The notes beneath the pieces were generated by a model, which was given only the letters and a program-made list of their open reading frames with translations, was not told the DNA's origin and made no database searches. Below, one piece after another: positions 1-4,543 of a stretch of 64,000 nt of DNA (positions are counted from its first letter, which is position 1; each line of letters opens with the position of its first letter). A program made the position numbers and the translations under genes. Source of the DNA: Podarcis bocagei (taxonomy: Eukaryota); assembly GCA_964188305.1 (NCBI GenBank), contig OZ076887.1; one strand, written 5' to 3'.

Positions 1-1804
1 TATGCTTCCAAGGGTAGCGATGCTGATAGAGGGCACAAAAGCTATGCTGCTTGAACTTGCTGATATGAAGAAAACAATGAGCTCTGCATGACTTCTGAGA
101 CCAGCTGAGACCAGAAAGTCTATGCAAGAAGTTTCAGCACTGCAAGTCAATCTCAACAGGATCAAGCAGTGCCACCATGCATGTTTTCCTGATGATATCC
201 TGATGTTATCCTTCTGTTTTCTCCACAACTTCTTTGGACACCCCATCAGTGTGCCCAAACCAGTTACTGAGAAAGAGCAGAAGCAAAAACAACAGCACAG
301 AATTCCATTAGGTTTCCTTTAATAATAGAGCCAATTTTAAAGCCTAATTCTGAAAGCACAGCAGATGAGGCTGTTATGCTTCCCTTGTTAAAATAGCTCA
401 CCGAAAACAACATTAGACATACATTAGGATTGGGCTATATGGGAACATAATGATCTGAGTAGCAGAAAATGAATATTGCAAGATACTTTGGGAAAGTGTT
501 ATTTACTAAGCAAGACCTCATTTAAACATTAAAATATTTAGAGGATAAACAAAGTCTTAGTAGCACTGTATAAGGTTAACACTGTAATGATGCCAACTTT
601 GTATATATCAGGCACTGATATGGAATGTATACAGAGATTTCCTTATTATTGTAAACAGCATTATTAAGTTCTATGCAAATACACTTTGAATATCAGAGCA
701 CCTGCAGCCCTTCAGATTCATATTCAGCCAGAAATAAGAATTGGCAGAAGCAAAGTACTCGCTGGGTTTTGTTTAGATTCAGCCCCTGGACTGAGGGGGA
801 GTATATGACAGAGAGGGAACTATGAGAATAACCATTTGCTACAAAGCACAGGGTGGTATGAGTAGCTGACTTTTTGGAAACACATAATATATCTCAAGGA
901 GCCTAAGAATTACTACAGATCTTTTGCAGTCTGTTTCCTGTACCACTGTTTCTAGCTATGTACAGAGTATGGAATGTCAATTCCGTCTGCATGGATGTTC
1001 CTGTTGAAACACACGTAGTAAGGCACAAATAGATCACCCTTGGAACATCCCAACTCAGAAAAGATGGTGGGCAAAAAGGACACAGTGCATTGTCTAGTTA
1101 GAAGATTGTGCTCCAAGAGAGATTTCAAATATGAACCAGGAATTTTTATTAGAGTTAAAAGAGTGATATCCCTAAGGCACCTTGCTAATCCTTTCTGTAC
1201 AGGGTAGTGTAATTAATAGCATCAACTCAACTAAATTAAAAGTATCAACCCGTGAAAAGGGCATAACTAGGCTCAGCTCAATAAAGAATACTTCCCAATG
1301 TGTAAAGAAAAGAGCTATACAGGAACAATAGGCCAGAGAACAATGTATCAGAAAAGTCAATTACCAAAATCATTGATTTGTTCCCACCTGAAAGAATTTT
1401 TTGAATTCTAGTCAAAGAAACCACTGCAAATCTTTTAAATAATATAAAAGAAAATATTGCTACAATTAAAATAAGGGATGGGACAGGAAGCTTTTCCCAT
1501 GGCTGATTTTGTGCTATCATGCTAAACTAAAAATGAGGAAAAGGTATTTTAAGGAAGTGATTATTATTATGGATATGAATAATTAGGAATGCGAATAATG
1601 CTGTTTTCAGTGCCGCCAAAACCTAAGAATCCAAGCACTAATCCAAGCAGAAATAAAAATTGTCACGAAACTCTATGATGTTATAAGCCCTATTCACATA
1701 CACTGTGTGCTGGTCCCGGGGCTAAGCTACCGTGAGTGTAGCAGAGTCCACACGAAGCGGGGCGAGGTCCGATGCAGAGAGACGGGCGGGGAACAGGAAC
1801 GCTG

Positions 1805-1965
1805 GAACAGGAGGCTGAGCAGGTAACAGGAACACCGGAGGGTCGGGAACAGGAGGCCGAGCAGGGAACAGGAGTACTGGATAGTCAGGGACAGGAAGCC
1901 GAGCAGGGAACAGGAGTACCGGTTAGTCAGGAACAGGAGGCCGAGCAAGGATCAGGATCACAGGA
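1805..1965. repeat. 42-bp tandem repeat (~3.7 copies) inside the LTR
   Basis: Unit ggaacaggaggccgagcagggaacaggagtactggatagtca and variants. It appears as the 14-aa EQEAEQxTG periodicity in ORF 1772..2086. Confidence 0.85.
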
Positions 1966-2039
1966 AGGTCCGAAGCCAACAACGACGTTGCTCCCGCAAC
2001 CTGGGGCCGGGATGAGTGGGCTTTTATCCTCTTCTAAGG

Positions 2040-2384
2040 TCAGGGGCGGTCCCGACCCCCAGGAGCCCCGCCTACTCTGGCCTTAAGGCGAGCACTCCTC
2101 CTGGGGGCAACTAGTTCCCTTCGCCTCTCTGCCCTAAGCCTCTGCAGATCAGGAGAGGCCGAAGGGTTACTGGGCCCTGGAGGAGGCTCACCTGTGGCCA
2201 CTGAGTCATCAGGCTCCTCTGGGGCCAGGAGGACTTCACCTGGGGCCAGCTCCTGCTGTACTGCCACAGGTGCAGGCTCTTCAGCCTCTAGGCCTTGCCC
2301 CAGTTCAGCCGGCCCTGGAGGCGGGGACTCCTGTGCAGGCTGGGATTCCTCTGTTTCATCCTCCGAATCGGAATCCCAGGCCAT
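2040..2384 (-). CDS. Putative 114-aa ORF inside the LTR U3 (MAWDSDSEDETEE...PRRSARLKAR...DRP)
   Basis: The ATG is at LTR nucleotide 5 (TGTG-ATG) and the frame is open to a stop at 2040, just upstream of the TATA-like box. Acidic N-terminus, Pro/Glu-rich middle, Arg-rich end. Translation is not demonstrated. Confidence 0.4.
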   Translation of the reverse strand: MAWDSDSEDETEESQPAQESPPPGPAELGQGLEAEEPAPVAVQQELAPGEVLLAPEEPDDSVATGEPPPGPSNPSASPDLQRLRAERRRELVAPRRSARLKARVGGAPGGRDRP

Positions 2385-2402
2385 CACACACTGGTGCATG
2401 AG

Positions 2403-2844: not shown

Positions 2845-4543
2845 AATGTATGAAGGCATGAGGATAGCCTTTGAACAAACAGTCAGGAAAACTGCACTAC
2901 TGAAAATATTTTTGGGAGAGATCATCACAGACCACAGCAAGCAGATGAAATGATGGGCAGAGCATGATCAAGAACTGTACTCTCAGGAAAACATGGTCCC
3001 TGACACAGCCATCAACAGTGTTCAGACTCTGCTTGTCTTGGAAGAGCTGGATATTCCTCCTTCCCTAAATTGATGAGCTGAAGAACACCATCAACTCAGG
3101 CATGTGGTAAAGCCCCAGGAAAGGATGTCATCCCAGCAGAAGTGCTGAAACCCAGCTTCAATTCCTCCCCATGGCACATCTCTACAGCCTCTTTTTGCAG
3201 TGTTGGGAACAAGGATCCATGCCACAAGACATGTGTGACTCCAGCAATATGACCCTCTTCAAGAACAAAGGTGACTGCAAGGGCAATAACAACTACTGTG
3301 GAATCTCCCTGCTGAATACTGTGGGGAAAGTCTTTACCCATGTGGTTCTCTACAGATCACAGTCACTTGCTGACCAGGTATTTGCGGGTTCACGGTGCAA
3401 ATTTAGATCTCAGAGGTTAGCAGACCATATGATTTTCTCACTGCGCCAGCTGCAGGAGAAATGCCGAGAGCAGGCATACCGCTTGTACATCATAGACTGA
3501 AAATGACTCTTCACACTTCTCAATGAGATAAGATGCCCACCTAAGCTGGTGTGAAACAGGGCTGTGTTCTTGCATATGGTGCTCTCATATGCCTTCAGCT
3601 CGACTGAAGACAGTGTGTACTTTCATTCATGAAGCAACAGGGGTCTGTTCAACCTGACATGTCTCCACACCATGACAGAGGTGTGGCAGGTCCTTATCCA
3701 ATGGATGTTGTTTGCAGATGACACAGCCTTGGAAGTTCTGCAGAGACTCTGCAACTATTTTGCCAAAGGCTGCAGGGAGTTTGGCCTTACCATCATCCTG
3801 ATGAAGACCAACATTTGAGACATCACCAGCACTCCATGTATCAACACTGGTAACCACACGCGTGAGGTGGTCAATGATTTTATCTACCTGGGTTCCACCA
3901 TAACCAGCAACTTGTCAATTGACACTGAGCTGGACAAGCGTTTTAGCAAGGCAGCTACAACAATGGCTCACCTCTCCAAAAGGGTATGGGAGAAGATGAT
4001 GCTAACATTAATACCAAGATGAACGTCTACCAGGCATCACATGGCAGGGCAGAGCTCAAAGAAAGTTGACCTCTCCCAGGCTCACATTCTCAGCATGTTC
4101 ATACTCCTGTCTCAGTGATGTCTACGCTGGCTTGGTAATGCCCACAGAATGGAATATGGCAGGAGCCCCAAGGACATGCTCTACAGGGAGCTGGCTTCAG
4201 GCCCCTAGGCAAACCAACTCTGCATTACAAATGTGACATGTAGGCTCGCAACATTTACCCTGCTGTGTAGGAATCCCTTGCAGATGGCCACAGTGCTTGG
4301 TCCACAGCAGTGACCAGAGGAGGAATGACCACTGGTATGAGCACTGAGAGAAGAAACACCATGATGCATCTGCTGCAGAACAACCAGATGCCTTCATCTG
4401 CACCAGCTGCAACAAAACATGTCTCTCCCATATCAGTCTCTACATCCATAGCAGGCACTGTAACTCGCCAACGGTTTGACTTTATCCCGAAAGGGGGCAC
4501 TCTTCCATTGTCTCCTGAGACAGATGAATGCCAACAACTACTT
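2845..4543 (+). mobile_element. Degenerate, 5'-truncated RTE-clade LINE (RT pseudogene)
   Basis: RT-like peptides WEQGSMPQDM..LFKNKGD..NYCGISLLNTVGKVF..MIFSLRQLQEKCREQ, LFADD and FIYLGS. C-terminal CxxC..H..C knuckle at ~4395-4460. RTE-like tail gacagatgaatgccaacaac. Multiple stops and frameshifts. Confidence 0.9.

Follow-up and report, generated by a model that had tools for sequence, protein, structure and literature searches.

The window, i.e. the whole stretch of 64,000 nucleotides of Podarcis bocagei DNA that was analysed (assembly GCA_964188305.1, contig OZ076887.1), carries near its start a 683-bp solo LTR with TGTG...CACA ends, bounded by a perfect 5-bp target duplication (CACTG on the plus strand). 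On the minus strand of this LTR, an open frame of 114 amino acids plus TGA runs from 2384 to 2040. An earlier note on this DNA had described such a frame, with an acidic head, a Pro/Glu linker and a basic RRSARL end, and had placed its ATG at LTR nucleotide 5 and its stop just before a TATA-like box. All of these parts were seen on translation, the stop ending at nucleotide 349 and the box starting at nucleotide 361. The following features were distinguished:

1706..2388, minus strand: solo LTR of a young Tf1/sushi-type chromovirus, subfamily A, from 99-100% genomic matches and pairs spaced 5065 bp apart
1701..1705, no strand: left copy of the target-site duplication, a perfect 5-bp repeat
2389..2393, no strand: right copy of the target-site duplication, a perfect 5-bp repeat
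2040..2384, minus strand: last 114 Gag-Pol codons (residues 1442-1555 of P0002), within U3, from frame continuity in full-length copies
2343..2384, minus strand: acidic head of the tail (residues 1-14), from translation, kept in six subfamilies
2151..2309, minus strand: fast-evolving Pro/Glu linker (residues 26-78), whose length differs between subfamilies by 18 and 30 nt, in frame
2076..2150, minus strand: conserved basic block (residues 79-103), amino acid identity between subfamilies 80-100% against 45-89% in the linker
2085..2102, minus strand: RRSARL, HMGN-like motif (residues 95-100), from translation, with the motif definition of PMC12487698
2021..2028, minus strand: TATA-like box GATAAAAG
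1988..1997, minus strand: inferred RNA 5' end and self-primer, from 10-nt complementarity to the primer-binding site of full-length copies
1804..1970, no strand: 42-bp tandem repeats in R/U5, three copies in register (repeat family D2)

The window LTR differs from its nearest copies at 6/683 bases. Because the copy is this young, its frame can be intact without any need of selection; about 3% of single substitutions in it would create a stop. Among 200000 shuffles of the 114 residues, RRSARL occurred in 10 and RRSxRL in 86, for a motif that was chosen post hoc. The solo LTR was most likely left by LTR-LTR recombination and is in itself ordinary. An upstream in-frame ATG at 2447 was rejected as a start, being located in flanking DNA. 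Likewise, an antisense frame of 104 residues (1772-2086, plus strand), which crosses the 42-bp repeats, is not a gene; it is open in subfamilies A and B, and its form is not kept in C-F. A Pfam scan of the 24 other long frames of the window gave nothing above the cut-off. At about 3000-4450 a decayed LINE-like reverse-transcriptase fragment was recognised by eye, with no Pfam match, which we take to be of the RTE/Bov-B type.

Searching this genome with the LTR yielded 1865 candidates; 40/40 scored ones were 99-100% identical, and many were paired 5065 bp apart. Five LTR pairs were extracted; they bound elements of 5.75 kb, each flanked by a 5-bp duplication and encoding a single long frame. 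The encoded polyprotein contains, in this order, gag, PR, RT, RH, IN, a Tf2-type SH3 domain and a chromodomain, with no env, and its best PDB match is Ty3 Gag-Pol (E 4e-140). An unbroken frame of 1555 amino acids from the gag ATG was present in three of the five full-length copies; in the remaining two the frame is broken further upstream, and the last pol segment still ends in the peptide. The chromodomain (PF00385, E 8e-15) occupies residues 1371-1418 and shows a Y-W-Y cage when compared by eye with what PMC3605345 defines as group I. After it the pol frame passes the polypurine tract and extends 349 nt into the 3' LTR, so that the LTR ATG becomes an internal Met1442 and 114 residues of the 127-residue tail lie in U3. 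Taken alone, the 114-residue peptide (P0001) matched 0 Pfam families (E up to 1) and, in a PDB sequence search, gave one chance match (E 7).

The nearest public protein, a Podarcis muralis gene model (P0003, 97%), already ends in the same tail. Among the best 150 integrase matches, 39 frames of 1564 codons and 7 of 1558 bear the tail, and 6 of 1459 and 3 of 1449 are tail-less. The LTR frame is thus almost certainly to be read as the C-terminal tail of a chromovirus Gag-Pol polyprotein. A C-terminal extension of Pol had been one of two options in the earlier note, and it agrees with the frame of the full-length copies, which continues from the chromodomain across the polypurine tract and enters the 3' LTR without meeting a stop, and with P0003. 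The element itself is best classed as an abundant young Ty3/Gypsy chromovirus of Tf1/sushi type, with trees built from database and other relatives only.

Regarding transcription, the primer-binding site of the full-length element is complementary over 10 nt to LTR nucleotides 392-401, which on sequence evidence only is a self-priming arrangement. Self-priming in place of a tRNA primer is described for Tf1/sushi elements in PMC6317226. In real copies of all six subfamilies (A-F, see below) the site lies 30-31 nt downstream of the TATA-like box, and the older subfamilies D-F have their stop codon in the TAA of GATAAAAG. From this site the RNA 5' end is placed near LTR nucleotide 392, and therefore the entire frame would lie in U3. 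The U3 placement given in the earlier note thereby gains independent backing. Full-length RNA would have the frame at its 3' end. The promoter of a solo LTR or of a 5' LTR would leave it untranscribed; in the solo copy, where the inferred transcription start comes after the frame, it is likely silent.

Raw RNA reads of a related organism (four runs with 189, 160, 70 and 72 reads, thin over pol and U3) show that the element family is transcribed there at a low level. In these low-depth runs (70-189 reads) we detected no splice joints and no start or end peaks. Read depth was higher over U3 than internally, as is expected because of the many solo LTRs, and the reads could not be assigned to the window copy. 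Among the indexed sequencing runs, no RNA run was on record with the element.

To describe how the tail evolves, 190 LTR copies, one per insertion, were grouped into six subfamilies. It is important to add that this is a best-match sample of about 2000 candidates which favours well-preserved copies, that the older subfamilies were reached stepwise from chance neighbours, and that loci at which no LTR start could be recognised were left out (2/30 in D, 4/30 in E and 4/30 in F). Searches with anole-like and other integrase pieces and with PF00385 mostly yielded the same young family. The frame was intact in 156/190 copies (A 43/48, B 31/31, C 32/34, D 20/26, E 11/26, F 19/25), and RRSARL was retained in 135 of the 156 intact copies. 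Intact frames measured 108-129 amino acids across the six subfamilies; their lengths differ by 18 and 30 nt, i.e. in frame. The other two frames of the same strand carry 1-3 and 9-12 stops, with stops in every subfamily. Among about 112 between-subfamily substitutions in the pol frame there was no stop (P 0.03-0.04).

The substitution rates gave a weaker signal. Pairwise dN/dS of the tail was 0.33-0.57; most pol domains gave 0.05-0.2. Judged from the private changes, neutrality would correspond to a ratio near 0.67 on the same scale, so that the tail's 0.45 represents a modest deficit; in the U3 tail of a second chromovirus family (see below) the ratio was 0.81. When nonsynonymous and synonymous changes between subfamilies were compared with private ones, the head gave 10/11 vs 39/22 (P 0.21), the linker 49.5/25.5 vs 71/40 (P 0.88) and the basic block 7/9 vs 26/10 (P 0.065), and the whole tail was not significant (P 0.28). 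The dN/dS test suggested in the earlier note is only weakly positive. Real copies of A and F share 45% of the amino acids of the linker; for the basic block the figure is 80%. Between the window and F copies, dS was 0.24 in the basic block and 0.74-0.87 in the linker; because synonymous sites in the basic block are slow, DNA-level promoter constraint may contribute. Altogether, the tail is probably translated and maintained by selection. As a side observation, the subfamilies are mosaic: A and B are near-identical in gag and RT (dS 0.005-0.07) and have an integrase dS of 0.39 (L031, L102, L107, L096, L097), a pattern pointing to recombination.

A point against a maintained tail comes from the junction between the polypurine tract and the 3' LTR. 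In this assembly 50/95 junctions were in frame (A 25/38, B 18/32), and the low share in the older subfamilies (7/25) counts against maintenance. The out-of-frame junctions arise where a run of G in the polypurine tract has changed its length by one base. The shifted copies do not group into a clade: each of two poorly resolved trees needed 10 changes, against 11.1 and 10.7 for shuffled labels, and 160/500 and 214/500 shuffles had as few changes. In contigs of four other runs, which drop rare variants, shifted variants made up about 10, 18, 2 and 0% of depth. These shifts most likely stem from recurrent slippage or assembly error.

We then compared the tails of related proteins, counting single-chromodomain relatives and leaving aside multi-chromodomain proteins. 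RRSxR[L/I] follows the chromodomain in 5/289 relatives (shuffle mean 0.20, maximum 2 in 300) and, in a search seeded with motif-bearing sequences, in 1/99 further relatives (shuffle mean 0.03); these tail counts are diluted by the many database tails that are gene-model fusions. The bearers, 6/388 relatives, are P0364, P0007, P0008, P0214, P0185 and P0098. The Anolis protein P0364 has a 103-residue tail ending in RRSARI, P0214 also shows RRSARI, and the toad proteins P0007 and P0008 show RRSPRL. Because the two toad proteins are sisters, the six matches represent about five lineages. Motif-bearing tails sit on scattered branches and their linkers cannot be aligned. When the motif is mapped onto a tree of the SH3 domain and the chromodomain, 6 changes are required, of which supported branches force at least 4; this is no fewer than with shuffled labels. 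The distribution may reflect either repeated gain or old presence with many losses. Judged by the peptide junction only, the motifs of these relatives would lie in U3.

Acidic-then-basic tails that lack the motif are found in an amphisbaenian (P0189), a viper (P0199), P0011 and P0130; RRSxRL was absent from the basic ends of the squamate relatives P0189 and P0199, of P0011 and of the second family. Most fish and fungal relatives examined have short tails, ending within a few dozen residues. The second chromovirus family of this genome has a Pol that is 48% identical and a frame reaching 349 nt into a 453-bp LTR; its tail is again of the acidic-linker-basic kind, with an Arg-rich end without the motif. 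Among these sequences a charged tail is the general rule and RRSARL one recurrent ending. Directly after the chromodomain, RGRP was found in 30/289 (shuffle mean 2.7) and 6/99 relatives, those named being fish, in both cases far more often than in shuffles; RGRP is the core of the AT-hook.

Some further observations concern the second family (L136-L142 in this genome, G000; first seen in L038:2-810). It is young, has gag and pol as separate frames, and its pol extends past the inferred self-primer of its LTR. Between chromodomain and polypurine tract it has two acidic motifs ending in GF, similar to one in Anolis P0364; these presumably resemble the FxGF motifs that bind TFIIS-N/LEDGF-type domains. 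Two nested insertions were seen: in L038 the tail of a second-family element is interrupted by an element of subfamily B, and in L138 a second-family element splits the env-like frame (by eye) of another retroelement. Contig C19 of this genome holds a large share of the full-length matches of both families, with several tandem elements sharing an LTR, and one guess would be a non-recombining sex chromosome.

Concerning the HMGN likeness, the tail reads RRSARLKA, compared with the full HMGN consensus RRSARLSA; the RRSAR core is present, and there is no HMGN Pfam domain. According to PMC12487698, RRSAR of HMGN2 and RRSSR of Dsup are resolved on the acidic patch. Yeast Dot5, with RRSARIAT, shows the same acidic-patch dependence (PMC13347269), and its motif nearly equals the RRSARI of the anole tail. 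A complex prediction with residues 76-110 and the genome's own H2A/H2B scored 0.02 against a mark of 0.34 and gave no verdict; as such prediction is reported to fail for HMGN2 too (PMC12487698), the low score counts neither for nor against docking. The putative chromatin tether considered in the earlier note gains indirect support from the recurrence of the motif.

Based on these findings, the following mechanism can be proposed. The tail would be translated from full-length RNA and would stay on the integrase after protease cleavage. The Y-W-Y cage of the chromodomain could then read the methylated H3 tail, and the arginines of RRSAR, at the end of a flexible acidic linker, could bind, as those of HMGN2 and Dsup do, to the acidic patch of H2A-H2B; the RRSARL end perhaps doubles as a nuclear import signal. 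We lean towards this combined reading, i.e. a Pol tail read through the polypurine tract into U3 whose RRSARL end tethers the integrase to nucleosomes. That nucleosome docking would be the main job of the tail is about an even call. More tentatively, chromovirus integrases may repeatedly have gained or kept a C-terminal HMGN-type RRSAR[L/I] anchor, encoded in U3 in tetrapods; such a protein would read the nucleosome at two points, with its chromodomain and at the acidic patch, while the LTR would be promoter and coding region at once.

Other explanations have to be weighed against this tethering tail. If the tail is translated, its basic end might act mainly as an NLS or a general nucleic-acid-binding segment, the HMGN likeness being incidental. 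This is supported by the other Arg-rich ends that relatives have in place of the motif, by the abundance of RGRP after the chromodomain given above and by integrase NLSs being common in retroelements (PMC3605345). However, several branches show the exact R-R-S-x-R-[L/I] spacing, well above what composition would give, and an NLS needs no serine, so that we regard this explanation as rather unlikely, yet the most serious of those considered here. It is less probable still that the tail is a tolerated read-through, in which case U3 would be conserved for its role as a promoter, and the open frame would be a by-product, as would the motif. The near-neutral linker, the non-significant overall N/S test, the slow synonymous sites in the basic block just above the TATA-like box and the frequent junction frameshifts would fit such a read-through. 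Against it, the pol frame alone is open in all six subfamilies and changes its length in frame, and in other species tails that cannot be aligned end in the same peptide motif. The junction shifts themselves are scattered on the tree and make up 0-18% of depth in four other runs, as for recurrent slippage or assembly error.

The remaining option of the earlier note, an accessory protein like sag or nef, would require that the 114-residue product is also made separately from its own ATG, on a spliced or read-through RNA. This ATG is found in all six subfamilies, where this end sequence was itself used to choose the copies, and the four motif-bearing vertebrate-type tails have it in the matching position; it belongs, however, to the att end (Sushi pattern TGTYANR in PMC3601003) and lies about 390 nt upstream of the inferred start site. 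Met is missing at that place in P0011, P0199, P0130 and the second family. The higher RNA depth over U3 would suit a separate product but is expected from the many solo LTRs. Five automatic gene models also start at the LTR Met (P0125, P0127, P0128, P0132 and P0133); as they splice it to gag or to a family-3 GPCR, they are likely annotation artefacts. With no separate frame, and no splice joint in the four low-depth runs, the accessory protein has little support and is very improbable.

Returning to the tethering Pol tail, if it binds the acidic patch, a retrotransposon integrase would join the short list of HMGN, Dsup and Dot5, and the vertebrate chromovirus chromodomain would be accompanied by a second targeting element, in parallel to the LTR-encoded CR motif of plant centromeric elements. 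Reading the frame as a Pol tail also accounts for the apparent ORF in thousands of lizard solo LTRs, which gene predictors join to host exons. In the literature searched, with most subscription papers outside the search, we found no HMGN-like or acidic-patch motif on a retrotransposon integrase and nothing on squamate chromovirus tails. As far as that literature goes, the HMGN-like ending would be a new feature of tetrapod chromovirus integrases; pol extending into the 3' LTR is already known from plant chromoviruses.

MMTV sag and HIV nef are separate proteins encoded in U3 and made from their own RNAs. The lizard frame resembles them in being coding sequence within U3 and differs in being fused to pol. 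Like HMGN, Dsup (RRSSRLTS) and Dot5 (RRSARIAT), the tail has both anchor arginines and the serine of the RRSAR core within a low-complexity protein (PMC12487698 and PMC13347269). Unlike HMGN, it has K for the second S and no HMGN Pfam or PDB match, and it is part of a retrotransposon integrase. In the case of Tf1/sushi chromoviruses (GyDB V-clade: Sushi-ichi, Amn; PMC6317226), the lizard element shares the Ty3/Gypsy order, the C-terminal chromodomain, the lack of env, the self-priming-type site and the 5-bp duplication; in contrast to most fish and fungal relatives examined, it carries the 127-residue post-chromodomain tail. Targeting by chromodomains is reviewed in PMC5053271. In plant CRM group A and the beet Beetle/Bingo chromoviruses, the pol frame extends into the 3' LTR, and in CRM the LTR-encoded part is a putative targeting domain and the LTRs begin with TGATG (PMC3059260 and PMC3605345). 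The lizard pol frame likewise enters the 3' LTR, by 349 nt. Yet in CRM the CR motif replaces the chromodomain, whereas the lizard element keeps a group I chromodomain upstream of the polypurine tract and its LTR-encoded part appears as an added acidic-basic tail.
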